The notes under the pieces: generated by a model | Database searches by the model: none | What the model saw: the letters and a program-made list of their open reading frames with translations, nothing else | What the model was told of the DNA's origin: nothing | Translations under genes and position numbers: made by a program | In this document: piece by piece, positions 4,595-21,688 of the stretch | How positions within the stretch are numbered: position 1 is the first letter of the stretch | Layout: the number at the start of each line of letters is the position of its first letter | Origin: Acaryochloris marina MBIC11017 | GTDB taxonomy: Bacteria; Cyanobacteriota; Cyanobacteriia; Thermosynechococcales; Thermosynechococcaceae | NCBI RefSeq assembly: GCF_000018105.1 | Contig: NC_009925.1 | Span: 2,700,001 to 2,732,000 of the forward strand | Length of the DNA: 32,000 nt | Reading direction: 5' to 3'

Positions 4595-4925
4595 ACGGAA
4601 GAATGCAGGGTTCAGCCTACGCAAGAATAAGGGTTTTAGCTTATCCCAAACTCAGGTTATGTAAATTCCTGAAACCCTTTCCAGACATAGGTTCCAAGGA
4701 AATATCATTTTTGGCTTAGCAGCTATCTGGAGGCTGTAAGCATCACTGGATATAGCTTTCAGTAGTTGTTGGAGCTCAAGGAAGTCATAGTCTTATATTC
4801 GAGAGTAGGTTGTCTACTCCCGTTCAGGTATGAATAATGTGTGCAAAAGACTCAGTACAGACATAACAACAATTTCATGAACGTTAGATGATAAACGACC
4901 TATGGGGAGATCTACTTCTGTCCTC

Positions 4926-5870
4926 TTAAGGGATTGTGACAGTTGGTAAATCTTGAACAATTTCAAACAGTTGACTCCTTAACCATTCATGGGCTGGATC
5001 GACCTGACTACGCTCGTGCCACATCATTTGCAAGAAAGCAGGAGCTATTTTGAGAGGCAACTCAGTGATGTGTAAGTCCGTTCTAAAAGGATTCCGCTCC
5101 ACCATACGGAGAGGAATTGCTGAGATTAAATCAGAACCTGCAATCAGTTCAGGAACCAGCGTAAACTGATTAACCGTTAGGGCAATACGGCGACTCAAGT
5201 CCATCTCCCTCAGTTGTTTATCAACCAGTCCTGTTGCCTCTCCAGTTAAAGTTACAAGGAGATGATCAGCCTTGATGTATTGCTTGAGAGTCAGTCGTTT
5301 ATGGGCTAAAGGATGGTCTTTACGCATGATGCAGATGTAGCGATCACCTATAATCTCCTGCACTCTGAGCCGAACGGTCGAGCGATAAAATCGCCCCATG
5401 GCCAGATCAATTTCAGATTGTTCGAGCAGCTTCGCCGCATTAATGTTTGTGTTCGGAACGATGCGGATATTTATATTAGGTGCGGAATGAGCCAAAATTG
5501 GTAGCAACTTTGGTAAAAAAAGAGCTACCGAGTAATCAGCCATTGCCAATGTAAACGTCTGCATTGATGAAAAGGGCTCAAATGAAGGTGGCGAGAGCGC
5601 TAGTCGAATATGCACTAGCCCCTCACGAATCGGTCCCCAGAGTTCTAGAGCTTTAGGCGTTGGACTCACGCCGCTCGGAACTTTCAAAAACAGTTCATCA
5701 TTAGTAATGCGTCTGAGCCTTCGAAGCGCATGACTCACAGCAGGTTGAGTCATATTTAATCGTTCAGCAGCACGGCTAACATTTAACTCCATCATCACAG
5801 CTTCAAAGATATGGAGTAGATTGAGATCGATCTGATTATGCACTGAATTCATAATGTTTATATTTATCAT
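4926..5870 (-). CDS. LysR-family transcriptional regulator
   Basis: 314-aa ORF. N-terminal wHTH (LNLLHIFEAVMMELNVSRAAERLNMTQPAVSHALRRLR) plus a substrate-binding C-domain. The real start may be the ATG at MNSVHN. Confidence 0.9.
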   Translation of the reverse strand: MININIMNSVHNQIDLNLLHIFEAVMMELNVSRAAERLNMTQPAVSHALRRLRRITNDELFLKVPSGVSPTPKALELWGPIREGLVHIRLALSPPSFEPFSSMQTFTLAMADYSVALFLPKLLPILAHSAPNINIRIVPNTNINAAKLLEQSEIDLAMGRFYRSTVRLRVQEIIGDRYICIMRKDHPLAHKRLTLKQYIKADHLLVTLTGEATGLVDKQLREMDLSRRIALTVNQFTLVPELIAGSDLISAIPLRMVERNPFRTDLHITELPLKIAPAFLQMMWHERSQVDPAHEWLRSQLFEIVQDLPTVTIP

Positions 5871-5972
5871 GAATTAGACATTATAATACAGCCCTTTTAT
5901 AGTCGAAATATGGCAACGCGGTAAATCCGCTGGAGCCAAGAGAATAAAGGGTTTTGAAAAGGCTATCGTATA

Positions 5973-7073
5973 TGTCAGAGATAAAGACAGCTTTGGTAAG
6001 TACCTATCCAAAATCAATTACATAATCTTTTCCGAAGCCCTTAAGGATTTTGTCGATGTACAGACTCAGGCTGCCTAAACACTTGTAGGCAGCAAATTCA
6101 ATCCACTCATATTTCATAAAACGCCAGAAAATCTCAATCAAATTCAGATGCGGTGAATAGGTAGGTAGCCAGAAAATTTCGACATTCTTGGCTTTCCAGT
6201 CCTCAATTTTTTCTTCAATTTCAGCGTTTTTATGGACGCTGGCTTGATCCATCACCACAACCGTGTGTTGATCACAGGTCCTACTAAAATCATCGATACA
6301 GGCCACCACCACAGCACTGGTAATACTCTTGTCAAACACATAGGAAGTGAGGTCATTGTGCCGATTCATCAACCCCAACACGTTGAATCGACTGCTGCGT
6401 TGACTGGGAAGTCCTAGTGTTTCCCCTTTCTCCTGCCAAGCATAGGGGACATACGGCACTAAGCAAAACCCGCTTTCATCGAGATATCTCAGGTCCAGCT
6501 CACCTTTTTCCTCTTGGCGCTTCAAGACCTCTAACTGATGACGTTTGGTTTCATACTCCACTGGGTCTGGCTGGCCTGCAACGACCCGCCTGAGACGACG
6601 CCAGCTCATGGAACATGATTTGAGGATGCGCTTGAGGGTGGTTTTGCTCACCGCTATGTTCCAGGCTTCTTTGATCTTGGCCAACACAGCATTGAGGTTA
6701 TGCGGAGTCATTTTTGCCCACGCTCGGATTTGCTCCTTCTGCACGTCATTCAACTTAGGTTTACGGCCCCGGCCTGGCTGATCATACAGACCCACTAAGC
6801 AGTGGTTGTCCCAATCATCTAACCAGGTATAAACCGTTTTTCGGGTGACGGCAAAGATGCTCATTAACTCTGTGACATTGAACCCTTCAAAACTCAACAG
6901 AATGCAATGGGCACGTTGACGGACTTGGTGGTGATAACTATGGCGATGAATCCGGCTGAGTAAATGGATGGTCTCTGGGCTCAATCCCTGAATAAAACGT
7001 TGTTTCATTGGGCTACAAGCTATTCGCTATCAACTGAACTGAAACCACTTATTATGATGTAAATATTTCTGGC
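5973..7073 (-). mobile_element. IS630-family insertion sequence, copy 1 (boundaries tentative)
   Basis: It carries an intact transposase gene. A weak imperfect terminal inverted repeat is visible: GTCAGAGATAAAGACAGC from 5974 against the reverse complement of the right end, GCCAGAAATATTTACATC. TA dinucleotides sit at 5971-5972 and 7074-7075. A length near 1.1 kb fits IS630. Confidence 0.55.
6004..7008 (-). CDS. IS630-family DDE transposase (intact, single ORF)
   Basis: 334 aa. N-terminal HTH region, then DDE motifs YLDESGF, VVMDQASVHKN and YSPHLNLIEIFWRFMK. Confidence 0.9.
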   Translation of the reverse strand: MKQRFIQGLSPETIHLLSRIHRHSYHHQVRQRAHCILLSFEGFNVTELMSIFAVTRKTVYTWLDDWDNHCLVGLYDQPGRGRKPKLNDVQKEQIRAWAKMTPHNLNAVLAKIKEAWNIAVSKTTLKRILKSCSMSWRRLRRVVAGQPDPVEYETKRHQLEVLKRQEEKGELDLRYLDESGFCLVPYVPYAWQEKGETLGLPSQRSSRFNVLGLMNRHNDLTSYVFDKSITSAVVVACIDDFSRTCDQHTVVVMDQASVHKNAEIEEKIEDWKAKNVEIFWLPTYSPHLNLIEIFWRFMKYEWIEFAAYKCLGSLSLYIDKILKGFGKDYVIDFG

Positions 7074-7101
7074 TATCTACTTAATTGGCGGGACGGGTGC
7101 A

Positions 7102-8061
7102 ATGGGACGAGCGGTTGTCCGTTCATTGCTTCAGGACAGCGTTGATTGGCAAATCGCCATTTTTTCGCGCTCTCCCGATAGTGAAACAGCGCAGCAACTC
7201 GTTGAACAAGGGGAGGGGAAAGTTTCTATTCGCCAAGGCGATCTCAACGATGAAGCTAGCCTTCAGCAAGCAATGACAGATGTAACCGCTGTCTTTTGCA
7301 ATACTAATTTTTGGGCAGAAGCTAGTTTTACCGTTGAAAAGGAGCAGGGGGTTCGCGCTCTTGAATTAGCTCGACAGTCAGGTGTGGATCACTTCATCTA
7401 CTCATCCTTAGATGCAGTAGCTTCACTATCTGGTGGTCTATTAATGCTCCCTCACTATGATGCAAAGGCAGCGGTCGAGCACGAAATCGACTGGCGACGC
7501 TCCGATGAATACATGCAACAGGTCGATGATGGTTGGTACTCCAATCACGTCAGCGTGTTGGTAACAGCCCCTTACTTTGAGAACTTTCAATCCATCTTTT
7601 TACCAGAATCTGGAACGCTCTCCGATGGCCGAGAAGGATTACTGTTCACTGGCCCACTTTCGGGTGATGCGCCCTGGCAGATGGTTGCATTGGATGATAT
7701 CGGTACCTTCGTAACCATAATGCTATCTGACCGAAAGACTTGGGGCGGTAGAACGCTGCGTGTTGCGTCCGAAGAATTACCGATGTCTAACGTCGTCGAA
7801 ACTTTCACTCAGGTGACAGGCATTCCAGCTGAATACAATCCGCCCACATTGGAAGCCTTTTTGTCGTCCGGGATTCCCAATGCCCATGATGTTGTCAATA
7901 ACTTTAGGCTCTATCGAGAGGGGTACGCCGCCCCCCGTGACTATGAATTCCTGAGACAACTCCACCCTGGTCTACGTTCGTTTGCAGATTGGCTAAAAGA
8001 AACTAACTGGAAGGGTGAAGCCCGTGCAGTGCAAAAAGATCCAATCACTGGCAGTAAGTAA
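7102..8061 (+). CDS. NmrA-like NAD(P)-binding protein, 5' end apparently damaged
   Basis: 319-aa ORF from the first ATG. The Rossmann motif LIGGTGAMG is encoded in frame upstream of that ATG (7081-7104). The frame is open only back to 7063, with no ATG, GTG or TTG in between. Confidence 0.7.
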   Translation: MGRAVVRSLLQDSVDWQIAIFSRSPDSETAQQLVEQGEGKVSIRQGDLNDEASLQQAMTDVTAVFCNTNFWAEASFTVEKEQGVRALELARQSGVDHFIYSSLDAVASLSGGLLMLPHYDAKAAVEHEIDWRRSDEYMQQVDDGWYSNHVSVLVTAPYFENFQSIFLPESGTLSDGREGLLFTGPLSGDAPWQMVALDDIGTFVTIMLSDRKTWGGRTLRVASEELPMSNVVETFTQVTGIPAEYNPPTLEAFLSSGIPNAHDVVNNFRLYREGYAAPRDYEFLRQLHPGLRSFADWLKETNWKGEARAVQKDPITGSK

Positions 8062-8121
8062 CGCTAGTTATTTAACGAGATAGCTAGAACGATTCAATAT
8101 ACTCATAAGGACAAAAACATC

Positions 8122-9003
8122 ATGACTAATTATCCGAATATTCTTGTTGTAGGTGCAACCGGGAAAGTTGGAGGTGAAACGCTACGACAACTCCAACTAG
8201 AGGGAGATAGTAATCCCATTGCCGCAGTTCGTTCCCCAGAACAAGCAAGGACTTTCCAAGATCAAGGCATTAAAACTGTCATTCTCGATCTAGATGAGCC
8301 CGAAACCCTAGAACCTGAACTCAAGGACATTGATCGCGCTCTGCTCTTAACCGGATATACCGTCGATATGTTGCGTCAGAGTAAGCGATTTTTGGATGCA
8401 GCCCAAACAACAGGTGTTCAGCATATTGTTCATATTGGTGCATCCACTGCACCCACGAATGAAGTATCCCACTGGGGATGGCATCAAATGGTGGAAGCCT
8501 ATATTGAGAAGAAAGGCTTTAGCTATACTCACTTACGCCCAGAAGCTTTCATGCAAAACATAACTGGCCCCGGCTTCCGATGGTTGGATGGTACCGTCAT
8601 TCGCCATTTTGCTGGCCGTGCTCGCTGGAGCTGGATTGACTGCGATGACTTGGCCTTAGTGGTTGCCCATGCTCTAAGGGAGCCAGAGAAATATGCGGGA
8701 CAAGTGATTCCCTTAGGTTACGACGCTAAGACCTTTGATGAGGTTGCAGAGATTTTTACCCAGGTGACAGGCCAAAACTTCACTGCCGAAGCTCGACCAC
8801 CAGAGGAGTTTTTGGAAAATTCGTTAGCTGCTGGGGCTGATCCAGCGTATATCAACAGTGTCTATACACAATTCAAGCTCAATAACGAAGATGCTATTCC
8901 TAATGCTGATGCTACCTTCAATAATTTTGCAGCAATTACCGGGCGTAAGCCAATGACTTGGCAGACGTTCGCTAAACGACATCGAAATCATTTGATTGCT
9001 TGA
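8122..9003 (+). CDS. NmrA-family / atypical SDR NAD(P)H-binding protein
   Basis: 293-aa ORF with an N-terminal ILVVGATGKVGG Rossmann motif. It is a paralogue-like neighbour of the previous gene. Confidence 0.85.
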   Translation: MTNYPNILVVGATGKVGGETLRQLQLEGDSNPIAAVRSPEQARTFQDQGIKTVILDLDEPETLEPELKDIDRALLLTGYTVDMLRQSKRFLDAAQTTGVQHIVHIGASTAPTNEVSHWGWHQMVEAYIEKKGFSYTHLRPEAFMQNITGPGFRWLDGTVIRHFAGRARWSWIDCDDLALVVAHALREPEKYAGQVIPLGYDAKTFDEVAEIFTQVTGQNFTAEARPPEEFLENSLAAGADPAYINSVYTQFKLNNEDAIPNADATFNNFAAITGRKPMTWQTFAKRHRNHLIA

Positions 9004-9013
9004 TGTTCTGTGA

Positions 9014-9038
9014 CTCATATCTTGGTGCAAGATATGAG
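9014..9038 (+). terminator. perfect 11-bp stem / 3-nt loop hairpin after the NmrA-like gene
   Basis: CTCATATCTTG-GTG-CAAGATATGAG lies immediately after the stop codon at 9001-9003. There is no T tract, so it could be a terminator or an RNA-stability element. Confidence 0.45.
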
Positions 9039-9161
9039 CTGATGGACTTAGGCTGTGAACCTGAAATTCGTGCAGATCAAGGTCAGGTGCTGGGATTAGC
9101 ACCTGGGCAGCAAACACTCCGTATTTTAGTCGCGGAGGATAACCTTGAAAGTCAACAATTA

Positions 9162-10104
9162 TAGCACTACGGATATATGTTAGTACGCTCTTTGAAAGCA
9201 GCATCCACACAATCACGAAAGGTATCAAATTCATCCCACCGCTGCTTCATCCAGTTTTTGAGCACAAACCACCATCGCTCGATTTTATTGAGATCTGGAG
9301 AATAGCTCGGTAGATACCAAATCTCACAGCCTGCTTCAGCTACGATTTCTTCGATCCTCTGGCCATGATGAAAACTGGCATTATCAATCACAATCACATC
9401 GCCAAGTTGTAACTGGGATATAAGACTCTGCTGTAACCACGCTTCGAATAACAACCGATTGCAAGACCCTTCAAAGATCATGGGAGAAAATAACTGGCCT
9501 TCTTTGAGCGCAGCAATAAAACTGACTCGCTCTGTCCGCTTGCCTGATTTGAGGTCATAAAATCGTTGACCCACAGGGCAGTATCCATAAGGATAGTCCG
9601 CTCGATTATCGATACCCGCTTCGTCTACATAGACGATCTGATGAGGGTGTTTGGTCTGTAATCGTTCTATAAATGCTTGACGTTGTGTTTCATCTCGTTC
9701 TCGATAGCCATAGGTCTTTTTTTCGACTCAATCCCAGTTTTCTCAAGGCATCACTGATATTTTGCTGGGTGACATTATCCCCCCATAGCTTAGCCATTTG
9801 GGCCTGGGTTTTACCCCCATGCTCTTGAGCAAATTCACGAAAGCGCTCCCAATCTGTGATCTTGTGGCGAGCCCCTTGTTGGTAGTTGGTAATCGCCTGA
9901 CAGTCACCTGTAGCTTCTTCGCGGACTATCCATAGATGCAAGGTATTACGGCTGATGTTCAACATTCGACAGATATCGACTTTCCGTTCACCATTCTTGA
10001 AGGCATCAACGGCTTTACGACGAAGGTCATAACTATAGGGTGCTGGCATACTAATGTAGGGATATCTTCTATATCAATAGTACTAACATAGTTTCGTAGG
10101 GCTA
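9162..10104 (-). mobile_element. IS630-family (small, ISY100-like size) insertion sequence, copy 2
   Basis: 943 bp. Terminal inverted repeats TAGCACTACGGATATATGTTAGTAC (9162-) and the reverse complement of the right end, TAGCCCTACGAAACTATGTTAGTAC, match at 21 of 25 positions. TA target duplication lies at 9160-9161 and 10105-10106. Removing the element rejoins the REC reading frame. Confidence 0.9.
9167..10049 (-). CDS. IS630-family transposase in two frames joined at an A7 tract
   Basis: orfA (9690-10049) has the HTH (ICRMLNISRNTLHLW). The downstream frame reads TYGYRERDETQRQAFIERL...VYVDEAGID...VIDNASFHH...YSPDLNKIERWW (DDE). The switch is at AAAAAAA (T7 on +, 9717-9723). One A fewer would give a single ORF. 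Confidence 0.85.
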
Positions 10105-10725
10105 TATTAGTGAAGTTATTGGAATTAGTGGGATGCGAGGTTTGAGCCGTCAGTAATGGTCAAGATGCTGTAAATCAGTCAGAGCAATGGCAACCTGATT
10201 TAATTTGGTTAGATTTACGTATGCCAGTCTTAGATGGATATCAAGCAGCTCAACAAATCAAAACCCAACCTCAACCGCCTATTATTATCGCCTTGACTGC
10301 TAATGCTTTTGAGGAAGACCGTAGCAAAGCCTTAGCTAGTGGCTGTGACGATTATGTACGTAAGCCCTATAAGGAATCGATCATTTGGGAAAAGCTGGCC
10401 GAGCATTTAGGGGTCCAATATCTTTACGCTGAAATTCAGAATGATGAAAGTTGTATTGATGACTTTGGCTTAACTGCAGCTATTTTGCTCGCTATCTCTA
10501 GTCCGTGGCTTCAGAAGTTGCATGCTGCGGTGATTGAACTAAATTCGAATCAGGTTGATCAATTATTAACTGAGATTCCTAAAGAGCATCGTCGATTGAA
10601 ATTAGCTATTTCTGAGCTGGCACAACAGTTTCGCTATGACGTACTCATGAACCTAACTCAAATGGCCCTGGAAGACCAGCCTAGCTAAACAAAGGTCGAT
10701 TTACTTCAGTCGCTGCTGCTGGGGA

Positions 10726-10768
10726 TACCTTTATCGGCGCTGTTGTTGGGAGCTGCGCGGAGCGTACT
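10726..10768. repeat. 43-bp dispersed repeat, copy B
   Basis: TACCTTTATCGGCGCTGTTGTTGGGAGCTGCGCGGAGCGTACT matches 4456-4498 at 38 of 43 positions. It sits just after the REC remnant stop codon. Confidence 0.7.
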
Positions 10769-11188
10769 GCTGGAGCAGGACCCCGAGAGGCAGACAGGCG
10801 AGGGGGAACGAAAGAATCAATTAGATCCATGATGCCACGCCTATGAAGGGCGGAGATCAGCTTGGGGTGAGGTAGAGATTTGAGTTCCGCTGGCTCGGTA
10901 CGCAGCACGGAAAAGAACAACCTCATGCAACGCAGCGATTACACTTCTCGTTGGAGTGGACGCTGTCGCGCAGCGAACAAAAGCTCCGATAGAAAAACTC
11001 TGACTGGGCGATGATGTCACTCAATTTGATTTTTACGATCGGGCGGATGTTATTAAAGTCTCAACAGATGAGGTTAACCATCACTTCAAAGCTTAATCCT
11101 CAAAAAATAGATGCCATTGAGTCATAGATGTCTTGAATTAACGTCTTCCGGTTATGGTGTGCGAGTAATGATTACATTTCCACCCGAT

Positions 11189-11777
11189 TCACTGAGTCTT
11201 GTAGTGTGACAGGAACATCGCAACACAATCTTGCATGATTCCATTTGTTTTCGTCTTCTCGCCGAGCAAGAACTCCGGCCAAAAGAAAAATGTTTTGACC
11301 AAACCCAACAGTTGATTGGCCGCATACTCAGGATCAGCTTTCCTAAGCGCACCTGAATCCATGGCCTCACTAATGAGCTTCGTCACTGGGTAATCGTGCG
11401 TAGCGGCTTTCGCAAAAAATAGTGCGAGAACGCTCTAAGTCCCGCAGGAACTCGGAAATCACAATACGTTGCAATCCAATAGCATCGCCATTGGTAATGA
11501 CACCGATATATTTTTCTAGTGCATCAATCAATTGTTCTTCCAATCCATGAGACGGGTCGTACGACACTGGCGACATGACATTGCTGCGCGCGAGCATAAT
11601 TTCAGAAACAACGTCAAACAGAGCTTCTTTAGTCTCAAAGTGATTGTATAGAGTGCGGCTCGATACCCCTGCAAGTTTTGCAATTCGGGTGGTTTTAGCG
11701 CCCAGAAATCCCTGCTCTCGGAATTCCTCTATCGCTGCCTCAATAATGCTCTCTCGTTTTCGTTCAGTGAGTTTCAC
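11189..11777 (-). pseudogene. TetR-family regulator, frameshifted at a homopolymer (or a sequencing error)
   Basis: The N-terminal 135-aa ORF has the HTH (FLGAKTTRIAKLAGVSSRTLYNHFETKEALF). The typical TetR C-terminus (KLISEAMDSGALRKADPEYAANQLLGLVKTFFFWPE) is in the +1 frame. The frames switch at the A6 run at 11414-11419. The combined length of about 195 aa is normal for TetR. Confidence 0.8.
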
Positions 11778-11803
11778 GTGGTTTCTTACCTTAGCAAATC
11801 AAA

Positions 11804-11867
11804 AAAGTAAAATTTGTTGTTTACTTTTTAGAGAACTGAGACTAAAGTAAATAGTGTAGTTTACTTT
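11804..11867. promoter_or_regulatory. two copies of the palindromic operator AAAGTAAA-N8-TTTACTTT in the divergent TetR/hydrolase intergenic region
   Basis: 11804-11827 (AAAGTAAAATTTGTTGTTTACTTT) and 11844-11867 (AAAGTAAATAGTGTAGTTTACTTT), with starts 40 bp apart. They lie between the TetR GTG start (11777) and the hydrolase RBS AAGGAG (11881). Confidence 0.55.
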
Positions 11868-11892
11868 TTAACCCAAAACCAAGGAGACAACG

Positions 11893-12828
11893 ATGGTCTC
11901 AAGCGAAAAAATTACCTTCAACAGCAAAGGCATCAAAATCGTCGGCAAGCTCTATCTTCCTGCTGATTTCGACCCGTCCAAAATCTATGAAGGGATCGTC
12001 ATGACCCCGCCCTTCCCACAGGTGAAGGATCAGGTGCTGGGCAATTACGGGCCGAGAATGGCAGAACGCGGCTATGTCGCTTTGAGCTTCGACTGGAACT
12101 CAAAAGGCGAGTCCAACACCTATCAGGAAGGCTTCCGCGACGACGAAAATATTCCACGTAAATTTGAGGATCTCCGTAATGCGATCTCCTATCTCAGATC
12201 GCTACCTTTCGTTGGCGAAATCAACGGTTTGGGTTTCTGTGGCGGCGGTGGCATTATGGCCTCGACCATCATTTCGGACATGCGGGTCAAGGCATTCGCC
12301 TCTGTCAGTGCGATGCTGGCGACCGATATGATTACCTTCGGTGACAAAAACGCCTACATCGCGCGCATCAAAGCGGCCAATGACGCACGCCAGAAAATGT
12401 TCGAAACCGGCCAGGCAATGAACCGCGATGTCTTCGGCTACACCGACCCTGACTTCCTGAAGAAAAACGTTGGTGCGCCAGCGGGCGTGCTGGAAGGCTA
12501 TGACTATTACGGCACCGCCCGTGGCGGCAAACCGACCTATCCAAATTTCACCAATGAAATTCTTGCGGATATCGACGAAACAACGGCCCTGAACCTTGGC
12601 GAGCACTATGCTGACAAGCTGGTGCAACCTTTCTGCGGTATCGTCGGGTCCGAGGCTGAGACCGCGCTCTGTACCAACGTGTACTACGACCTCGTGACCT
12701 CGGAAAAAGAGTTCCACGAGATTCCCGGTGCCAGCCATGTTGGTCTCTACGACGTTCCAGAGAACATGGCCCAGGTGGTCGATATCGTGGATGCGTTTTT
12801 CAAGAAACATCCTGATCCAATCGCCTAA
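11893..12828 (+). CDS. alpha/beta hydrolase, dienelactone-hydrolase-like (Cys nucleophile)
   Basis: 311-aa ORF with a strong RBS. Nucleophile elbow GFCGGGG (G-x-C-x-G, as in dienelactone hydrolases). A C-terminal His lies in IPGASHVGLYD. Confidence 0.75.
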   Translation: MVSSEKITFNSKGIKIVGKLYLPADFDPSKIYEGIVMTPPFPQVKDQVLGNYGPRMAERGYVALSFDWNSKGESNTYQEGFRDDENIPRKFEDLRNAISYLRSLPFVGEINGLGFCGGGGIMASTIISDMRVKAFASVSAMLATDMITFGDKNAYIARIKAANDARQKMFETGQAMNRDVFGYTDPDFLKKNVGAPAGVLEGYDYYGTARGGKPTYPNFTNEILADIDETTALNLGEHYADKLVQPFCGIVGSEAETALCTNVYYDLVTSEKEFHEIPGASHVGLYDVPENMAQVVDIVDAFFKKHPDPIA

Positions 12829-12905
12829 AGGATAGGCGTTCAAACTATCAATGGAGAGGCCACACAGATTGTTTATACAGCCTGGTAATAACACCTCAAA
12901 AGAAA

Positions 12906-13853
12906 ATGAGACGAACCATGAAATTTGATAATAACTCTACGACGACCGACGTACTCAACGGCATTGATCTATCGGGTAAGACCGTCCTTATAACTGGAGC
13001 ATCAACAGGTCTTGGGGCCGAGACTGCGCGGGCGACCGCCGCTTGTGGTGCTGATGTCACCCTCGTTGCGAGATCAGTAGATAAGCTGTCTAAAGTCGCC
13101 GAATCAATCCTATCGGAAACGGGTCGCTCGCCCAATACCGCAGTCTTGGAATTGGACAAACCTGCCACGATTCGCAGCTTTGCCCAAGAGTGGCTTAGCC
13201 GTCACGAAAAGCTCGATATTCTGATCAACAACGCAGGCATTATGGCACCTCCGTTGACCCGTAACGCGGAGGGTTGGGAAAGCCAGTTTGCGACGAACCA
13301 TCTGGGTCACTTTCTGCTGACCAATTTGCTGGTCGATGCCATCAAGGCCTCAGGAGAAGCCCGCGTTGTCAACCTGTCATCTGCTGGGCACTGGTATTCA
13401 ACGGTAGATTTAGACGACCCGAATTTCCAAAACCGCGACTATGAAGCGCTTCAAGCCTATGGTCAATCAAAAACGGCAAACATCTGGTTCACGGTAGAAC
13501 TCGCTCGTCGTTGGGCAGATCACGGTGTGAACAGCTTTGCAGTACACCCAGGCGGCATCCAGACCGAGCTTGGCCGAAATCTGGAACCGGAAATGGCCAA
13601 GAGGTTTGAGCAGATGATCAAGGATTATCCGGATATCTGGAAGACGGTCCCTCAAGGAGCGGCAACATCCTGCTGGGCTGCGACATCGCCTGATCTGAGC
13701 GGCAAGACAGGCCTGTATCTGGAAGATTGTCACATTTCTGAGCCGGGTGCCGGAGATGTGCTCGATGGCGGATACGCTCCACACGCCTACGATGCCGATG
13801 GCGCAAAACAACTGTGGATACTTTCGAACGATCTGTTAGGCACAGAGTTCTGA
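12906..13853 (+). CDS. classical short-chain dehydrogenase/reductase (SDR)
   Basis: 315-aa ORF with TGASTGLGAETA (TGxxxGxG), NNAG, and catalytic YGQSK (YxxxK). Confidence 0.9.
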   Translation: MRRTMKFDNNSTTTDVLNGIDLSGKTVLITGASTGLGAETARATAACGADVTLVARSVDKLSKVAESILSETGRSPNTAVLELDKPATIRSFAQEWLSRHEKLDILINNAGIMAPPLTRNAEGWESQFATNHLGHFLLTNLLVDAIKASGEARVVNLSSAGHWYSTVDLDDPNFQNRDYEALQAYGQSKTANIWFTVELARRWADHGVNSFAVHPGGIQTELGRNLEPEMAKRFEQMIKDYPDIWKTVPQGAATSCWAATSPDLSGKTGLYLEDCHISEPGAGDVLDGGYAPHAYDADGAKQLWILSNDLLGTEF

Positions 13854-14020
13854 GATTAAACGCAGCAGCTAAACCCGCACTGGGACCGAAACCAGCCTGA
13901 ACCACTCCCATCTGTCACCCTCATCCATGCTGGAAGCCCCACTACTGTGTGGCGTGCAGAGTTATATGGTGGCAAAGTAGGAACCGAGTTGTCGAACAAC
14001 CTCCTGTGAACTGACTGATA

Positions 14021-15162
14021 CCAAATCCGATTTATATAACCCCGATATGATGCATTATTAGAGAATGCCAAGAAAACTATATCTCGAACCTCATTTTTCG
14101 CCTGACGAGCTGAAGTCTCATTATCGAGCCAGCAAAGACCCAGTAGAATCGCGCCGCTGGCATCTACTATGGCTCGTCAGTGAGCAAACAACCCTGACTC
14201 ACGCAGCCCAAGTGGTGGGTCTCAACTACGATTACGCTCGAGAAATCGTCAGGGAGTATAACCACAATGGCGCCCATGGGTTACACAACCGACGCAAAGA
14301 TAAGCGACCTCATCAATCTCGCAGTCTTCTCACTCAAGACCAATGTGCACAATTGTTGACTCGTCTACAAACACCACCCGCCGACGGTGGTCTATGGAAC
14401 GGACCCAAAGTAGCCCAGGTCATCGCTCAGATGACAGGAGTCGATAAGGTTTGGCCCCAACGGGGTTGGGACTATCTCAAGCGATTGGAGCAGTCCCTGC
14501 AATGCCCACGTCCTCATCATCGTAAAGGTGAACCGGAGGCCCAAGCCGCCTTTAAAAAAACTTCCTGAATACAAAGCAGAATTAGAGCGATGCTATCGTG
14601 ATGCTCAGGTCGAAATTTGGTCTTTTGATGAACACCGATTAGGCCTTAAACCCATTATTCGAAAGATTTGGGCGCCTGTGGGGCAGCGTCCAATTGCTGA
14701 GGTGGACCATCGCTATGAATGGACCTATCTATACGGATTCGTTCATCCCGCAACCGGCGATACCGAATGGTTCATTCTACCTCGGGTCAATGGAGAATGG
14801 TTTAATCAAGCCCTACAAAGCTTTGCTCAGCAAGTTGGAGCGGGAAAGCACAAACAGATTCTTCTCGTTCTGGATGGAGCCGGATGGCATACCTGTAAGA
14901 ATCGGGTGGTGCCACCTGGCATTCATCTGAAGATTTTACCCCCCTATTCTCCAGAGCTACAGCCAGCTGAACGGTTGTGGCGGCTAGCGGACGAGCCACT
15001 GGCTAATCAGTGTTTTGAGACCCTGGATGACCTCGAAGATGTTCTCGAGCAGCGCTGTCGAACCTTAATGACAATGCAATCGGACATTAAAGCTCTAACT
15101 CATTACCATTGGTGGCCAGCTTGACAGATGAAATGTTTCGGGGGTTAGTAAGTCGGATTTGG
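14021..15162 (+). mobile_element. IS630-family insertion sequence, copy 3
   Basis: 1142 bp. Inverted repeats CCAAATCCGATTTATATAACCCCGA (14021-) and the reverse complement of the right end, CCAAATCCGACTTACTAACCCCCGA. TA duplication at 14019-14020 and 15163-15164. Confidence 0.85.
14065..15124 (+). CDS. IS630-family transposase in two overlapping frames joined at an A7 tract
   Basis: orfA (14065-14568) holds the HTH part. orfB is in the +1 frame and carries the DDE motifs (WSFDEHRLG, LVLDGAGWH, YSPELQPAERLW). The A7 run is at 14554-14560. With A6 the reading would be a continuous ...AAFKKLPEYKAE... Confidence 0.9.
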
Positions 15163-15716
15163 TATGATACCAAATGTGCGATGATCTTCGACCGGCCTTT
15201 GACCATCGCATACCCCTGGGCAGGTGGAAACGTAATCGTGCTCAACTGTTGAGGATTAGTCTGCAGTTGCAATTTTCAATGGTTACGTCCCCGTCATGGA
15301 AGTACGTTCTGGGGGTAGATTGGCAACGACAACACAGACATCATCACTATCCAACATGATGGACTGAAGCTGAACTGAAATGGGCGAACTCCTCTGCAGC
15401 TGAATCTGACTTGCCAGAATCCGTGATTCCTGGCTAACGCCTACTCAATAGACTGTTTCATGCTCGTCCTTGACCAATAAGTCATTCTGAGTCAGGGACT
15501 TAATCACCTCAAAGCTTTCATCAATGCGTTTCTGGATGATTGCATTCCGGCCACGGATTGAGGCAATCATCAAATATCTTCTTCCCTTTTCACCGACACT
15601 TCCCAATACACCTTTGGGAACACCCAAGACTTTATTGAAGGCAGAGAGAACGCCCCCGCTGCTATTGGCACACTGAAAAGCCCTATGCGACTTACAAGGG
15701 TTTAGTACAAAAGAAA

Positions 15717-15788
15717 GCTGGTGACAAGACTCGAACTTGCGACCGGCTGATTACAAATCAGCTGCTCTACCAACTGAGCTACACCAGC
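15717..15788 (-). tRNA. tRNA-Thr (anticodon UGU)
   Basis: The minus strand reads GCTGGTGTAGCTCAGTTGGTAGAGCAGCTGATTTGTAATCAGCCGGTCGCAAGTTCGAGTCTTGTCACCAGC. It folds as a cloverleaf with a 7-bp acceptor stem, anticodon loop TTTGTAA and a GTTCGAGTC T-loop. No CCA is encoded. Confidence 0.9.
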
Positions 15789-15991
15789 GTGCCTAGACAT
15801 TATATAAGCGTTATAGCCAAAACGCCTATACACATCAAACTAGCTCATCTATGATAATTCAGATATTCCCCATTTTTCATAAATGGTGGCAAATTCTCTG
15901 TAGATTGTAGAGAAGCACCCATTAGGCAATTGCCATTGCTAAGTGCTTAGCAGGCCGCACAGCTGCCATAATCCCTGATTTTGCCTTGACC

Positions 15992-17305
15992 ATGACGATG
16001 ACTTGGACGGTTGAGCAAGTGATTGCTCTATCACCGGACGATAAATCCACCAAAAACGGTAAAAGTTTAGCCACTGCCAGTAAATGGCAGACTTTAGGCA
16101 CCAATCAACAGGCCATTTGGGGTGAATGTCGCGGCAGTGGTAAGAAACCCTACCGAACCCAAATCGATCTGAGCGAACCAGCCTTTCGCTGTAGTTGCCC
16201 CAGTCGCAAGTTTCCCTGCAAACATTCCCTAGCCCTGTTCCTATTGCTTGTTAACCAAGTGGAATTATTTACCGCCGCCGATCCCCCCGACTGGGTTCAG
16301 GAATGGTTAGAGAAGCGATCTCAAACCGCATCCCGTAAGCAGGCCAAGGCCACTACTACCGACCCAGAAGCCCAAGCCAAACGCATCGCCCAGCGCGAAG
16401 CCAAAATCCTGGCTGGTCTAGCTGATTTGGACCAGTGGCTCCAGGATTTAATGCGTCAGGGCTTAGCCACGGCCCAAAACCAACCCTATAGTTTTTGGGA
16501 ACAGGCCGCTGCTCGCATGGTCGATGCCCAAGCGCCCGGTCTAGCTCACCGTCTGCGAGAAATGGCCAGTATTCCCCACACAGGCGGCAATTGGCCATCT
16601 CGCCTATTGGCTGAATTGGGCAAGCTCTATTTACTCGTGCAAGGGTATCAGCGACTGGCCACCTTACCAGAAGCTGCACAAGCGGAATTGCGATCGCAAA
16701 TCGGCTGGACCCAAAAACAAGAGGATCTGCTCACTAGCCCCTCCCCTATGGTGGTCAAAGATACCTGGTCGGTTCTGGGCAAACGGATCACCACCGAAGA
16801 CAACTTAAATGTTCAGCGCGTCTGGCTATGGGGCATCACCCATCAACGCCCCGCCCTCATTCTGAGTTTTGGGTATCAAAATCAGCTCCTCGACACCAGT
16901 TTGATACCAGGCACGCAGATATCAGCAGAGCTGGTTTTCTATCCAGGGCTCCATCCCCTACGAGCGTTAGTCAAAGCGCGACAGCCTGACGTTGACCTTA
17001 TCCCTCCACGGGGAGGTGCAGCCAATATTGCGGACGCCATCGCCCATTACGGAACGGCAATGGCGACCAATCCTTGGCTCGTGCAGTTTCCGTTGCTGTT
17101 AACCACCGTCATCCCTCACCGGACGGATCAACAATGGCACATCGCTGATACGCATGGGCATCAACTACCCCTCCAGTCAGGATTTGACCCATGGCCTTTG
17201 CTAGCTTTAAGTGGGGGGCATCCAGTGATGCTCTTTGGAGAATGGAATGGCCACAGCCTTCTCCCCCTCAGCCTTTGGGCTGGCGGCCGATTTGTCCCTT
17301 GCTAG
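15992..17305 (+). CDS. SWIM zinc-finger family protein
   Basis: About 437 aa. The track ORF starts at TTG 15986 and the first ATG is at 15992. The SWIM signature is CSCPSRKFPCKH (CxC...CxH), followed by a charged linker and a long C-terminal region with no motif I recognise. Confidence 0.85.
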   Translation: MTMTWTVEQVIALSPDDKSTKNGKSLATASKWQTLGTNQQAIWGECRGSGKKPYRTQIDLSEPAFRCSCPSRKFPCKHSLALFLLLVNQVELFTAADPPDWVQEWLEKRSQTASRKQAKATTTDPEAQAKRIAQREAKILAGLADLDQWLQDLMRQGLATAQNQPYSFWEQAAARMVDAQAPGLAHRLREMASIPHTGGNWPSRLLAELGKLYLLVQGYQRLATLPEAAQAELRSQIGWTQKQEDLLTSPSPMVVKDTWSVLGKRITTEDNLNVQRVWLWGITHQRPALILSFGYQNQLLDTSLIPGTQISAELVFYPGLHPLRALVKARQPDVDLIPPRGGAANIADAIAHYGTAMATNPWLVQFPLLLTTVIPHRTDQQWHIADTHGHQLPLQSGFDPWPLLALSGGHPVMLFGEWNGHSLLPLSLWAGGRFVPC

Positions 17306-17311
17306 GAGTTC

Positions 17312-18871
17312 ATGATGCCAACCCCTTGGGAAACATTAGTCGCCCATGCCTTAATCGGTACCGATCGCCAAACACCACAGATACCAACGGGGGAAGGACA
17401 ACTCGAAGCACTACTCAGCCAAGTGCCGACAGAAGCAGAATCCCTACTCTTACACGCTGCAGGGATTGTGGCCAGCTATCAACAGGCCGGACAAGGTGCG
17501 TTCTCTCAGGAAGGACCACTACCCACTTGCTGCCCAGAAGAAACCTTATTCCCCTGCAGTGACCGTACCCATCAACATCTACAAACCATTCTCAATGGTG
17601 AATACAAAGACGCTTTATGTGAACTCTTAGATCTAATAGCCCAAGCGCACCAATATATTCCCTTTGAAACATTACCCGCCCTCCTAGATCAAGGCCGTGG
17701 GCAAACCTCGTTACGATCTCATATCCAAGCCGTCATCGGCGAACGGGGACGCTGGTTAGCACAACATAATCCAGTGTGGGCGTATGCTGCTGGTCAAACT
17801 TTGCCTTATACACAGGCTGGGGAAATCGACCAAGAGGCTGTGGAAAACTTGTGGAAAACTTCTAATTACGCCCTCCGAGTCGATCTGTTGAAAACTTTCA
17901 GAAGTCTTAAGCCTCAAGCTGCTCGAGAGATGTTAAGTACCACATGGAAGCAAGAAAAGGCCAAAGATCGAGCAACGTTTCTTGCCATACTCAAAACGCA
18001 TCTTAGTTTAGAAGATGAACTCTTTCTAGAGGCAGCTTTACACGATCGCGCCCAGGATGTCCGAACAGGTGCTCGTGATCTGCTGGCCCACTTACCCCAG
18101 TCACAATATTGTCAGCGTATGGCTGCCCAGATACAAACCTATGTTCAGTTCGAGAACAATACCCTCTCTATTACCCTCCCTCAAGATGATGGCTCCTGGA
18201 AACATGAGCGTTCTTACTCCCAATCCAGTCAGTTAGGACGGCGAGGGAGTCTGCTGATGCAAATCGTAGCAGCTGTTCCCTTAAAGGTTTGGCCAGAGGA
18301 TGTAGATGGTCTGATCCAAACCGCCCAGACCCACCAACAGGGTGCTGCTCTATTACAGGGATGGACCATCGCAGCCCAGAGACAAGCCAATCCAGCATGG
18401 ATCCAACGAATGATGGGCTATTGGCTCAGCAATCTTGCCGAGCAGCAAACCGATGACTCCATTGATTTTCTGATTAAACGATTGCCCGCTGAACAGATTG
18501 AGCCGCTATTTCTACAATGTCTAGCCGAATCTAGCTCTCCTGCGGAAAAAGCCCAAAAATGTATCAGATTGGCCCAGTGGGGGGCATTCCTCAGTCCCCA
18601 TTTCAGTCAGGTTTGGTGGGAAACCCTTAAACCCGGCCTCAGCCCATTACTGGCACACACTTCAATTGCTTCACAGACACGATTACAGTTTGCAACGTTG
18701 CGATCGCTGTTCGATACCGGGTCTCTCAATCTGCATCCCATCATTGCCGATGATGTCATTACTTACCTTAACCACTTGAATAGCGAGGCATTCTCGACCT
18801 ATCAACAAAACAGCTTGATGCTATGGCGAAGTACCTTCGAATTCCGCAAAGCTATCTGGTCAGAATTTTAA
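17312..18871 (+). CDS. helical-repeat protein resembling DUF5691 (usual partner of this SWIM family)
   Basis: 519-aa ORF starting 6 nt after the SWIM stop codon. AGGAG overlaps that stop. HEAT-like segments are present (LHDRAQDVRTGARDLLAHLP). The family assignment comes from memory of gene context and overall character, not from a search. Confidence 0.6.
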   Translation: MMPTPWETLVAHALIGTDRQTPQIPTGEGQLEALLSQVPTEAESLLLHAAGIVASYQQAGQGAFSQEGPLPTCCPEETLFPCSDRTHQHLQTILNGEYKDALCELLDLIAQAHQYIPFETLPALLDQGRGQTSLRSHIQAVIGERGRWLAQHNPVWAYAAGQTLPYTQAGEIDQEAVENLWKTSNYALRVDLLKTFRSLKPQAAREMLSTTWKQEKAKDRATFLAILKTHLSLEDELFLEAALHDRAQDVRTGARDLLAHLPQSQYCQRMAAQIQTYVQFENNTLSITLPQDDGSWKHERSYSQSSQLGRRGSLLMQIVAAVPLKVWPEDVDGLIQTAQTHQQGAALLQGWTIAAQRQANPAWIQRMMGYWLSNLAEQQTDDSIDFLIKRLPAEQIEPLFLQCLAESSSPAEKAQKCIRLAQWGAFLSPHFSQVWWETLKPGLSPLLAHTSIASQTRLQFATLRSLFDTGSLNLHPIIADDVITYLNHLNSEAFSTYQQNSLMLWRSTFEFRKAIWSEF

Positions 18872-19670
18872 AATCGCTTAGTATCTAGATCCGTTCAGGC
18901 TCAGTACTTTTTACATTAACTCTATAAAAACCTGTAGACTACAACCCTTAATCTACATTTATAGCTACGCTTAAGCCTCGCTCCACCAAGACTCACACAA
19001 AGCCAAGAAACTACGGCATGGCTTAACAAATAGAGATTATGGGAGACTGACAGTCAATCCAACCATAATTTTCTTAAAAAATCCCAAATCAAGTTTTTGA
19101 GATTGCTAAATTGGAAGCTAAATCAGCCGTCAGAACAGCTCAAATTTATCTCTTTTCACAAGAAAACAGCAGTTATTGTTATTTGTAAAATATTTGACTT
19201 TACACTAAAAAACCATTCTGGATTCCTCAAAATAAATTAATAATTAGTATCTATTTTGATGCTATAAAAGAGTAAATCTTACATCAAAGAATACTAATTT
19301 TCTTTGAAAGCACTCAATAATAGAGAAGCATTTCACTCCATGAAGATTTGGCACTCTACCCAAATCCATAGAGATGGTTTCAGCTGTTTATAAAGTTTGG
19401 GGGAGGGGCAAAAAGATATCAACTGTCTAGGGAATGCTTTTTAATGCCATCGTTTCACAGACTAGCTGATAGCACTAAAAATATTACGTAATAACACGCA
19501 AGCACCCTGATATTTAGATAGCTAGAATAATTGCTAGTGAGGGAAAATCATTAACCGAACTCAAGGTTAATGTTCGGAGTGCTGGGGAAATTTTCGATTA
19601 TCCTTTGTTACTGACCAGTGATTGTTAGCCGTTTGTTCATGTTTCGATAGCTTATCTCTCTCTACAACCT

Positions 19671-21143
19671 ATGCTGGCTAAGCCTCAAACCATTCTGCCT
19701 TCTCCACAACTTGCAATTAATCCCCGTGGGTTTGAGTTGTGGTATCAACCGGTGTATGACGTTTCTTCAGGGAACGTTCTTCAAAATGAAGTGCTTTTAC
19801 GATGGCGGGATACCCAAGGGCTGATCCATCGGCCGAAAGAGTTTATGCCAGTGGTTCAAAATGCGGATGCTGAGCCATGGTTAGATCGCTATGTGACGGG
19901 ACAGGCCATTGCCCAATTAAAGCAACACGCTCACCTTAAGCTTTCTATTAATTTATCAAAGCGCATTGTCGAAGATCGCTTTATCGCCGAAGATATTTAC
20001 GATCTGCTGGTCAACCACAGCGTTCAACCGCACCAACTGCACTTTGAAGTATCAGAAGCGAGTCTGGCCAAAAATTTCCAGGATTCAGTTGCTTTAATCC
20101 GAGATCTAAAAGAACTCGGATGCTCCGTCACCTTAGACAATTTTGCTAATCAACATCTCACCTTTCTGCAGTGGGAAAAGCTAGGGGTTGATGCCGTTAA
20201 AATCGACCCGTCTTTGATTCGCGACCTGAGACAAGATTCGCCCCAAACGCGATTGGCCAAAGCCATCATAGAAACCAGTACCGCCTTGGCACAACCTGCG
20301 ATCGCAACTTCCGTAGACGCTTACGCCACCTCTCGTCACTTAGTGAATCTAAGCTTTAAGTCCGCCCAGGGATATCACTTCAAGCCTCCTAGCGATCACC
20401 CTTGGCTCACAAACACAGTTGATATTTTAGGGGTTCCCATTGATAACGTGACCCAAGACGAGTTGCTCCAGGAACTGAAATCGGGCATCGTTTTTACTCC
20501 CAATGTTGACCATCTCATGAACCTGAAGCAGGATGAAGAGTTTCGAGCTGCTTACAACATCGCCGACTACAAAATTTGCGATAGCCAGATTCTTTACTTT
20601 TCCTCCCATTTCCTTGGCTCACCGATCAAAGAAAAGATTTCAGGATCAGATTTATTTCCCGCCTTTTACACCTATCACAAAGATAATCCAGACATCACCA
20701 TTTTCCTGTTAGGTGCTGCGCCAGGCGTAGCCGCTCAAGCGCAACAAAACATCAATGCCCATGTGGGTCGTGATATCGTCGTTGGTTCTTACTCTCCCTC
20801 CTATGGTTTTGAAAACAACCCCGAGGAATGTGCAGAGATTATCGAACGGATTCATCACTCTGGAGCAACGGTTCTCGCCATTGGAGTCGGATCGCCCAAG
20901 CAAGAGCGATGGATTTATCGGTATCGTCAACAGCTAGCAGAGTCTGTAAATATTATTTTTGCCATAGGCGGCACTTTAGATTTTGAGGCTGGTACTCAAA
21001 AACGGGCTCCAAAGCTCATCAGCACCATGGGCGTTGAGTGGCTCTTTCGCCTGATGGGTGAACCGAAACGCCTCTGGAAACGTTATTTAATTAACGACCT
21101 GCCATTCTTGAAATTAATGCTGCATCAAAAATTTGATCGCTAA
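19671..21143 (+). CDS. fusion protein: degenerate EAL domain plus WecB/TagA/CpsF (GT26) glycosyltransferase domain
   Basis: 490 aa. EAL landmarks: WYQPVYD, NEVLLRW, SINLS, HFEVSE, TLDNFA, KIDPSLI, ATSVD, AQGYHF. The C-terminal half has GT26 landmarks: GVPIDNVTQDELL, TPNVDHLM, FLLGAAPGVA, GVGSPKQERW, GGTLDFEAG. Confidence 0.85.
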   Translation: MLAKPQTILPSPQLAINPRGFELWYQPVYDVSSGNVLQNEVLLRWRDTQGLIHRPKEFMPVVQNADAEPWLDRYVTGQAIAQLKQHAHLKLSINLSKRIVEDRFIAEDIYDLLVNHSVQPHQLHFEVSEASLAKNFQDSVALIRDLKELGCSVTLDNFANQHLTFLQWEKLGVDAVKIDPSLIRDLRQDSPQTRLAKAIIETSTALAQPAIATSVDAYATSRHLVNLSFKSAQGYHFKPPSDHPWLTNTVDILGVPIDNVTQDELLQELKSGIVFTPNVDHLMNLKQDEEFRAAYNIADYKICDSQILYFSSHFLGSPIKEKISGSDLFPAFYTYHKDNPDITIFLLGAAPGVAAQAQQNINAHVGRDIVVGSYSPSYGFENNPEECAEIIERIHHSGATVLAIGVGSPKQERWIYRYRQQLAESVNIIFAIGGTLDFEAGTQKRAPKLISTMGVEWLFRLMGEPKRLWKRYLINDLPFLKLMLHQKFDR

Positions 21144-21268
21144 TGCGTCCTACAAGCTGCTTCTAACAGCGATTTAATCTATAACTCCCATTCTTACCGC
21201 TGAGTGAGCAGTGGGTTGTCTTGTACGGCTGCACAAGCCATGATGAAAGCAGTTGTTATGCAGCCCCT

Positions 21269-21688
21269 ATGGATACAGAACACCAACGCTTAACTCTACA
21301 AATTTTGATCGGTTCAGCCTGGGTAGACCATACGCTCAGTGAACCCGAAGTGACCTATCTCAAACAGGTACTGGATCGCTACCATCTAACGCAGGATAAC
21401 GAGTTGAAGGCCCTTCTCCAGGAGCCGGTTCCCGCTCAACAAACTGAACGCTGGATCGTTGAGTTTTTAAGGCAAACCAACCAAGAAGAACGACTGAAAC
21501 TCTTGGCAGCCATCGGTAACTTATTAATTGCCGATGATGTGGTGTCAGAGATAGAGCATGACTTACTTGATGAGTATCATGCCCTGATGGCTCAGATTCC
21601 CGATGACCCACATCACATTAGCAATTTAGTTAGGAATATCGGATCTTACGTTAACAAAGCCTTGCAAACCCTCGCCAACTTGCCTTAA
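21269..21688 (+). CDS. TerB-like (tellurite-resistance TerB / DjlA N-domain-like) protein
   Basis: About 139 aa from the ATG at 21269 (the track ORF starts at TTG 21221). The helical pattern LIGSAWVDHTLSEPEVTYLKQVL ... LLAAIGNLLIADDVVSEIEHDLLDEY is typical of TerB-fold proteins. Confidence 0.55.
   Translation: MDTEHQRLTLQILIGSAWVDHTLSEPEVTYLKQVLDRYHLTQDNELKALLQEPVPAQQTERWIVEFLRQTNQEERLKLLAAIGNLLIADDVVSEIEHDLLDEYHALMAQIPDDPHHISNLVRNIGSYVNKALQTLANLP

Follow-up and report, generated by a model that had tools for sequence, protein, structure and literature searches.

This analysis concerns a pair of adjacent genes in a 32,000-nt stretch of the chromosome of the cyanobacterium Acaryochloris marina MBIC11017 (NC_009925.1, positions 2,700,001 to 2,732,000; henceforth the window, in whose numbering the positions of its features are given). 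Gene 1 (15992–17305, forward strand) codes for a DdrT-like SWIM zinc-finger protein of 437 amino acids (aa) counted from the ATG at 15992, its open reading frame (ORF) opening at a TTG at 15986 that would yield 439 aa. Gene 2 (17312–18871, forward strand) codes for a DdrU-like DUF5691 alpha-solenoid protein of 519 aa. Public records already contain annotations of both genes: gene 2 is identical over 519/519 residues to WP_238549235.1 (annotated as a DUF5691 domain-containing protein of Acaryochloris marina) and over 518/518 residues to ABW27683.1 (AM1_2681) of strain MBIC11017, and gene 1 is probably AM1_2680, an unconfirmed tag that follows from adjacency to AM1_2681 only. As detailed below, sequence comparison makes it almost certain that the two are the MBIC11017 orthologues of ddrT and ddrU, genes of the five-gene ddrTUVWX system named in Deinococcus, and the locus is a split operon, with the ATPase gene of the system retained elsewhere on the same chromosome.

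The family assignments and the junction between the genes bear out what had been proposed earlier from the letters of the window without database searches (the sequence-only reading). Gene 1 matches the Pfam SWIM family (PF04434) over residues 68–86 with 25.8 bits against a gathering cut-off of 19.6. The match centers on the motif CSCPSRKFPCKH (CxC-x6-CxH; 16190–16225, forward strand), whose predicted zinc ligands C69, C71, C78 and H80, numbered from the TTG start, are invariant across 58 homologues (alignment A3). In the same alignment, the run P72–H80 (PSRKFPCKH) is likewise invariant, S70 is conserved at ≥90%, and the 12-residue block as a whole is nearly invariant. The DUF5691 assignment of gene 2, which the sequence-only reading had proposed and on which it had let its case depend, is supported by a Pfam match (PF18944) of 402.1 bits (E = 7.7e-120; gathering threshold 27 bits) that runs from residue 8 to 519 and covers profile positions 1–491 of 491. 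An NCBIfam search gave no match. At the junction, a Shine-Dalgarno-like AGGAG (17304–17308, forward strand, as read from the sequence) overlaps the gene 1 stop TAG (17303–17305), and a 6-nt spacer separates this stop from the gene 2 ATG at 17312, just as the sequence-only reading had it; a second ATG at 17315 has a better Shine-Dalgarno spacing and yields the 518 aa of the original annotation. The tight coupling proposed on these grounds extends to homologous loci, for in those examined the SWIM and DUF5691 genes either overlap by 4–14 nt or stand 6–9 nt apart.

AlphaFold models, generated from the 58-sequence alignment for gene 1 and a 60-sequence alignment for gene 2, give a picture of the likely architecture of the two products. 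The gene 1 model (predicted local distance difference test score, pLDDT, 89.8) comprises an N-terminal SWIM module, a helical middle (residues 102–250) and two beta-rich domains (255–438), and the gene 2 model (pLDDT 89.9) is an all-helical solenoid. The best PDB matches of the latter in Foldseek are designed armadillo proteins, importin-alpha and karyopherins (E ~1e-3, probability 1.0, template modeling (TM) score 0.2–0.26). The gene 2 product is predicted from this to be a generic ARM/HEAT scaffold, and the earlier description of a helical, HEAT-like protein is upheld by both the model and these matches. A PDB sequence search with profiles of both proteins found nothing, and Foldseek found no global PDB match for the gene 1 model. 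Its N-terminal SWIM module does align with ZSWIM8 (PDB 9rwz; Foldseek probability 0.96–0.97 over 125–145 columns), a substrate receptor of eukaryotes that itself carries helical repeats, much as gene 1 goes together with a helical-repeat protein, the separate DdrU solenoid. However, the resemblance is local only (E 0.15–0.17, TM 0.16–0.18) and there is no bacterial cullin/ubiquitin machinery; the likeness may thus be taken as an analogy for a receptor role and not as family membership. The C-terminal part of gene 1 gives weak Foldseek matches to tandem OB-fold proteins such as LEF-3, EF-P, HIN, SSB and RMI (E 0.01–0.3, TM 0.2–0.3). Further, in five independent loci (numbered here, like all comparison loci, with the prefix L), SWIM and DUF5691 are fused in a single ORF of 965–1015 aa that both profiles match end to end (L078 7754–10720; L085 9986–12880; L128 2285–5293; L134 447–3491; L152 4632–7601). 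These fusions, along with the constant overlap or spacer of ≤9 nt, argue that the two proteins act as one complex.

Both genes are under purifying selection and their ORFs are intact in all strains compared. In comparison with an A. marina S15-type strain, gene 1 has a ratio of nonsynonymous to synonymous substitution rates (dN/dS) of 0.11 and gene 2 one of 0.27; with more distant relatives, the ratios are 0.08–0.10 and 0.23–0.26, respectively. These values are rated similar to those of neighboring housekeeping genes (0.04–0.16). Gene 1 is much better conserved than gene 2: identity to the proteins of Acaryochloris sp. IP29b is 81% for the former and 58% for the latter, and to those of A. thomasi 65% and 38%. 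Even a Blastocatellia protein is 54% identical to gene 1, and homologues matched at 99% coverage span 54–92% identity.

According to the sequence-only reading, such a pair normally heads a conserved cluster with the order SWIM, DUF5691, MoxR-type AAA+ ATPase, DUF5682 and VWA, found in actinobacteria, myxobacteria and cyanobacteria. This composition and order proved correct, and the range much too narrow. A SWIM-anchored scan of one genome per species (185,579 genomes) gave at least 544 confirmed matches, from which 80 loci were kept and annotated with hidden Markov models built from the first examples. Among the matches listed, SWIM-DUF5691-AAA_5-DUF5682-VWA_CoxE is complete and in order in 53 of the 59 species genomes that could be judged, i.e., those with ≥7.5 kb downstream, and in a separate scan anchored on DUF5682 the same holds for 42/47 judgeable metagenome loci. 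The phyla among the SWIM matches listed include Cyanobacteriota, Chloroflexota, Acidobacteriota, Planctomycetota, Verrucomicrobiota, Bacteroidota, Actinomycetota, Pseudomonadota, Deinococcota and others. The full cluster is seen, for instance, in the annotated neighborhoods of Scytolyngbya, a Blastocatellia metagenome-assembled genome (MAG) and Pseudanabaena. Plasmid-borne copies of the cluster occur in Hymenobacter, Rhizobium, Deinococcus, Methylosinus and Leptolyngbya.

This cluster is the one known as ddrTUVWX, because a D. taeanensis plasmid locus with the layout SWIM-DUF5691-AAA_5-(78-aa ORF)-DUF5682-VWA_CoxE matches exactly the arrangement reported for that strain, in which a 78-aa ORF stands between ddrV and ddrW (PMC9510100). 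In Deinococcus, ddrTUVWX has an upstream radiation/desiccation response motif (RDRM), is controlled by IrrE/DdrO and is of unknown function (PMC5552922, PMC6300522), the IrrE/DdrO regulon being the radiation/desiccation response (PMC4007540, PMC5552922, PMC6300522, PMC9510100). The SWIM gene of D. deserti, Deide_18730, is the first of a five-gene operon whose third gene encodes a MoxR ATPase (PMC4007540, PMC5552922), and this operon (Deide_18730-18690) is induced >10-fold by radiation, among the most strongly radiation-induced (PMC4007540). The families and their order are identical between the cluster described above and the Deinococcus operon, which D. taeanensis and others have besides D. 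deserti. An alignment of gene 1 with D. taeanensis DdrT covers 97% of the former at 35% identity (E = 5e-57), and gene 2 and DdrU both exceed the Pfam DUF5691 threshold, although direct similarity between these two is local only (35% over 69 aa). In other respects A. marina differs: its locus holds ddrT and ddrU only, the orthologue of ddrV has a different place on the chromosome, and neither ddrW nor ddrX was located in the regions searched. The RDRM and IrrE/DdrO control are known for Deinococcus only, whereas Acaryochloris has another conserved 30-nt element upstream of the pair. Thus, the suggestion that the pair is an undescribed module has to be given up, since the system already has a name and a place in the IrrE/DdrO regulon (PMC4007540, PMC5552922, PMC6300522) and its ATPase defines the YehL subfamily (PMC3893208). 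The accompanying statement that its function has not been established experimentally holds, as the function of ddrTUVWX is unknown in Deinococcus too (PMC5552922, PMC6300522). Literature searches for DUF5691, DUF5682 and AM1_2680/AM1_2681 by those names found no papers.

Where, then, are the remaining genes of the system in A. marina? At the locus itself, the absence of ATPase and VWA partners asserted by the sequence-only reading is real. A Pfam scan of all ORFs of ≥110 aa outside a genomic island in the window (3825–15713), plus the larger ORFs within it (six island ORFs of 119–155 aa at 8824–11777 were left out), gave no AAA_5, DUF5682 or VWA match. Remnants of these genes were sought with tblastn in all six frames of the window, using 14 ATPase, DUF5682 and VWA queries from Pseudanabaena, Scytolyngbya, the Blastocatellia MAG, A. 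thomasi and E. coli. The best hit had E = 0.03 and none fell in the gap downstream of gene 2 (18872–19670), and the idea of remnants was dropped. For the genome the assertion fails with respect to the ATPase: a cognate YehL-type AAA_5 ATPase, ABW27509.1 (P0383), is encoded on the same MBIC11017 chromosome, with a GenBank accession number 174 away from that of AM1_2681. It came to light within a 374-aa orthologue cluster in a search with the A. thomasi ATPase, to which it is 82–83% identical. It matches Pfam AAA_5, and its Walker A, sensor and arginine motifs are intact in the alignment; the ATPase of the cluster is ~80% identical even between cyanobacteria and Acidobacteria. The apparent lack of an ATPase partner thus arose because only 32 kb were in view. 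In terms of the five-gene order, the third position is occupied in the genome and not at the locus, and the fourth and fifth (DUF5682 and CoxE-type VWA) are vacant at the locus. As a separate observation, the Asp-Glu position of Walker B is Glu-Glu (RIEEL, RVEEL or RFEEI) in 6/6 aligned ATPases of the family, E. coli YehL included (other members of this alignment being P0383, P0284, L006 11591–12697 and L005 9597–10685).

How the ATPase gene came to be apart from the pair can be read from a series of Acaryochloris loci. In two contigs that branch deeper within the Acaryochloris clade (L176 and L177), SWIM, DUF5691 and AAA_5 genes stand in a row ahead of fpg, psaE and a gene for a KaiB-histidine kinase, and L089 has the same order save for a 150-aa ORF on the opposite strand inserted between DUF5691 and AAA_5. 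In the MBIC11017- and CCMEE 5410-type A. marina, a block (141-aa ORF)-AAA_5-fpg-psaE follows ndhF/ndhD, with YcxB and GldB-like lipoprotein genes between ndhF/ndhD and the ATPase block in the MBIC11017 type, and the pair sits away from this block, between tRNA-Thr and a gene for an EAL/WecG fusion protein. The break falls just downstream of gene 2, at AT-rich, poorly conserved intergenic sequence; the 5' part of the gap there can be recognized as the rearrangement junction because it is where the ATPase gene follows in the sister lineages. With the ATPase kept on the chromosome, and adjacent to the pair in those lineages, the locus is a split operon and not an ATPase-less system: the operon was split by rearrangement, the ATPase gene staying beside fpg-psaE. 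Of the earlier suggestion of a minimal or split version, it is therefore "split" that survives, the ATPase being elsewhere on the chromosome and contiguous with the pair in sister lineages, and "minimal" that does not. Loss of the ATPase and VWA genes by assembly error, which the sequence-only reading had itself raised, is excluded because several A. marina strains, assembled independently, show the same pair-only locus; the sequence SWIM-DUF5691-0.8 kb-EAL/WecG is found in MBIC11017-, CCMEE 5410- and S15-type strains. The ORF of 141–150 aa lies just upstream of the Acaryochloris ATPase gene on the opposite strand (L089 3235–3687, reverse; L092 9428–9853, reverse; L178 9428–9853, reverse). It has no Pfam match (the 150-aa L089 copy by scan, the 141-aa copies by precomputed matches), and from its position it may mark the rearrangement. 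In A. thomasi the cluster ends after the ATPase, and no DUF5682 or VWA gene adjoins the pair or the ATPase in any of the Acaryochloris-clade loci examined, namely the window, L001, L003, L006, L089, L176, L177, L092 and L178. In L003 and A. marina, a conserved element of its own precedes the pair, and none of the partner genes lies within 10 kb.

Fragmentation of the cluster recurs in cyanobacteria. Among the matches listed, four of the six partial loci of the genome census belong to named cyanobacteria (Calothrix, Richelia, Coleofasciculus and a Synechococcales MAG), and in the metagenome census the V-less or solitary DUF5682 loci (L095, L100, L132) are closest to cyanobacterial sequences. 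Other kinds of variation were also encountered. In Pseudanabaena sp. ABRG5-3 (L004, 11639–15599) the DUF5691 and AAA_5 genes are separated by a 4.3-kb insertion that carries a PIN toxin-antitoxin pair and a protein with HTH_3 and Peptidase_M78 (ImmA/IrrE-type) domains. The presence of an IrrE-type protein there is curious, given that an IrrE/DdrO pair controls ddrTUVWX in Deinococcus. Toxin-antitoxin- or immunity-like genes (SMI1_KNR4, DUF5678, PIN) are found inside the cluster repeatedly (e.g., L007 15397–15987; L008 12688–13494 and 15792–16501). In L033 (2573–5047) and L110 (4361–7038) the VWA gene stands directly ahead of the SWIM gene, a circular permutation of the order that resembles E. 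coli yehP-yehQ.

The E. coli K-12 yehLMPQ genes are a more distant parallel. YehL is an AAA_5 protein 39% identical to the cluster ATPase, and the subfamily that it founded and named is one of seven among the MoxR AAA+ ATPases (PMC3893208); YehM is a DUF5682 protein, YehP a VWA_CoxE protein, and YehQ carries a SWIM finger. In contrast to the five-gene cluster, the order is permuted with SWIM last, and there is no DUF5691 protein. The similarity of YehQ (614 aa) to gene 1 or gene 2 is limited to the CxC..CxH motif (BLASTP and hhalign, E 0.2–0.3); the possibility that YehQ is a fusion of SWIM and DUF5691 was accordingly considered and rejected, there being nothing similar beyond the zinc motif. 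The yehLMPQ genes are a distant variant of the five-gene system, likewise uncharacterized. The pairing of a MoxR ATPase with a CoxE-type VWA protein is the signature of machinery devoted to maturing or remodeling one particular client complex, and the full cluster, with its MoxR-class AAA+ ATPase and its VWA protein of the CoxE type, has this pairing as well. The known MoxR-VWA remodeling pairs, i.e., RavA-ViaA, CoxD-CoxE, NorQ-NorD and CbbQ-CbbO, and the related BchI-BchD (PMC3893208 and general knowledge), differ in being without SWIM, DUF5691 and DUF5682 components, and the A. marina window holds none of the enzymatic parts.

Several features flank the pair. Its upstream neighbor is a tRNA-Thr(UGU) gene (15716–15788, reverse strand; ARAGORN and Rfam), which also precedes the pair in L001 and L089. 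This tRNA gene is the integration site of the 11.9-kb island at 3825–15713, which is missing from an A. marina S15-type sister strain by comparison and is flanked by the tRNA gene and by a degenerate copy of ~50 nt of the tRNA 3' half at 3775–3824; the tRNA and island boundary described by the sequence-only reading are hence real. The two genes are not part of the island, and strains without the island still carry them. The island cargo comprises a LysR gene, two NmrA-like genes, an SDR gene and two IS630-type DDE_3 transposase genes, one intact (6004–7008, reverse strand) and the other (14065–15124) split into an HTH ORF and a DDE ORF; no integrase was found among the island ORFs scanned. Between the tRNA gene and the pair, ~80–105 nt before the start codon, lies the conserved element GTGGCAAATTCTCTGTAGATTGTAGAGAAG (15886–15915, forward strand), which may serve the two genes as promoter or operator. 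Its core TCTGTAGATTGTAG(A/G)GAAG hardly varies among the window, L001, L003 and L089, and it has been kept despite diverged surrounding sequence and a different upstream neighborhood in L003, a pattern that suggests a regulatory role for the 30-nt element. Promoter and terminator scans gave background level only, and Rfam searches of the upstream region and the gap found nothing but the tRNA. The 0.8-kb AT-rich gap noted earlier downstream of the pair is confirmed (18872–19670, GC 0.38–0.39). In alignment with L001 its 5' part (to ~19150) is poorly conserved and its 3' part (~19200–19670) well conserved, the latter belonging to the upstream region of the EAL/WecG gene. This gene (19200–21143 region) encodes an unusual fusion of an EAL domain (cyclic di-GMP phosphodiesterase-type) with a WecG/TagA glycosyltransferase. 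The ~470 nt of non-coding sequence ahead of it are better conserved between strains than synonymous sites, with >90% identity at 19480–19670 and no Rfam match there, and may represent a long leader or else a regulatory RNA not yet described. A TerB-like 155-aa protein encoded further downstream (21221–21688) was considered as a DUF5691 fragment; its Pfam match (E = 7e-4) is sub-threshold, the hhalign probability is 0.6%, and the resemblance is put down to chance.

The picture that we consider rather probable is that the pair represents ddrT and ddrU of a split system, their products forming an adaptor sub-complex that works in trans with the distal ATPase. DdrT and DdrU would be made in fixed proportion and enter a single complex, in which the DdrU solenoid would act as the scaffold and DdrT, with its SWIM, helical and beta-barrel parts, as the target-recognition component. 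The complex would deliver its client, a protein or a nucleoprotein complex, to the MoxR-type ATPase in trans, and the ATPase, by analogy with RavA-ViaA, CoxD-CoxE, NorQ-NorD and CbbQ-CbbO, would remodel or mature that client. By analogy with the regulation in Deinococcus, the machine may serve a stress or DNA-damage response. A number of points weigh against this picture. It is co-retention only that suggests action in trans with the distal ATPase, and only the Deinococcus regulation that suggests that there may be a link to DNA damage. The OB-like C-terminal domains of the gene 1 model, with their weak matches, are leads only. No DUF5682 or VWA_CoxE gene of A. marina was found in the window, within 10 kb either side of the ATPase gene, or on the A. 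marina plasmids in PLSDB, and if the genome really has neither, the canonical MoxR-VWA mechanism could not hold here without modification. Finally, in a few loci the SWIM gene is entirely alone (L010; L051, with 5.6 kb downstream only), and the components can therefore occur apart.

A different possibility is that in Acaryochloris the SWIM-DUF5691 complex no longer needs the other three proteins, of which DUF5682 and VWA would have been lost and the ATPase kept, and functions by itself, e.g., as a zinc-finger/solenoid binder of protein or nucleic acid. The lack of adjacent DUF5682 and VWA genes in all nine Acaryochloris-clade loci examined, the upstream element that the partnerless pair keeps for itself in L003 and A. 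marina, and the purifying selection on both genes are what one would expect of it. Nevertheless, the same genomes retain the cognate ATPase, intact and highly conserved, and the ~90% of judgeable loci across phyla that hold all five genes together argue for obligate cooperation; moreover, the loss of DUF5682 and VWA is judged from the loci and A. marina plasmids examined and not from the whole genome. On balance, such independence appears unlikely. That the pair is non-functional, a decaying remnant or an assembly artefact, might be suggested by the missing partner genes and the AT-rich, poorly conserved stretch after gene 2, but the data refute it: the ORFs are intact in all strains with dN/dS of 0.08–0.27, the same arrangement is found in independent assemblies of three strain types, and the gap holds no fragments of partner genes, leaving this explanation with hardly any probability.

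The other alternative is that of biological conflict, with the cluster being a mobile NTPase-based anti-phage defense system and the pair its leftover sensor module. The patchy distribution over many phyla, the occurrence on plasmids, the frequent presence of toxin-antitoxin genes (PIN, DUF5678, SMI1_KNR4) inside the cluster, and the tRNA-integrated island that the pair adjoins in the window would all fit such a system. However, that island does not include the pair, which is also found in strains lacking the island, and PADLOC offers no match for either protein (in PADLOC-DB v2 neither gene 1, gene 2 nor the downstream 155-aa protein is matched). Further, unlike fast-diversifying defense sensors, the SWIM protein (54%) and the ATPase (~80%) are unusually conserved between cyanobacteria and Acidobacteria, and the Deinococcus operon belongs to a DNA-damage regulon (PMC5552922). 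A role in defense is thus quite improbable.

The A. marina pair is, then, an ordinary, if rearranged, instance of a known, named and functionally uncharacterized system, and the ddrTUVWX/yehLMPQ-type cluster to which it belongs is among the more widespread conserved bacterial operons still without a biochemical function. It is doubtful, but worth considering, that the Acaryochloris clade is truly without DUF5682 and VWA and that the SWIM-solenoid complex, with or without an unlinked YehL-type ATPase, is a self-sufficient functional core; were this so, the core would be a natural minimal version that shows which parts of the ddrTUVWX/yehLMPQ family are essential. The Acaryochloris series can be seen as a natural dissection of the operon—five genes together in most phyla, the first three in the clade, and two plus one apart in A. 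marina. It marks the SWIM-DUF5691 pair as the tightest sub-unit, never found apart in this series, translationally coupled and sometimes fused, and the ATPase as a component that can be encoded at a distance. This series reveals no new kind of system but helps in the design of experiments on the composition of the complex.

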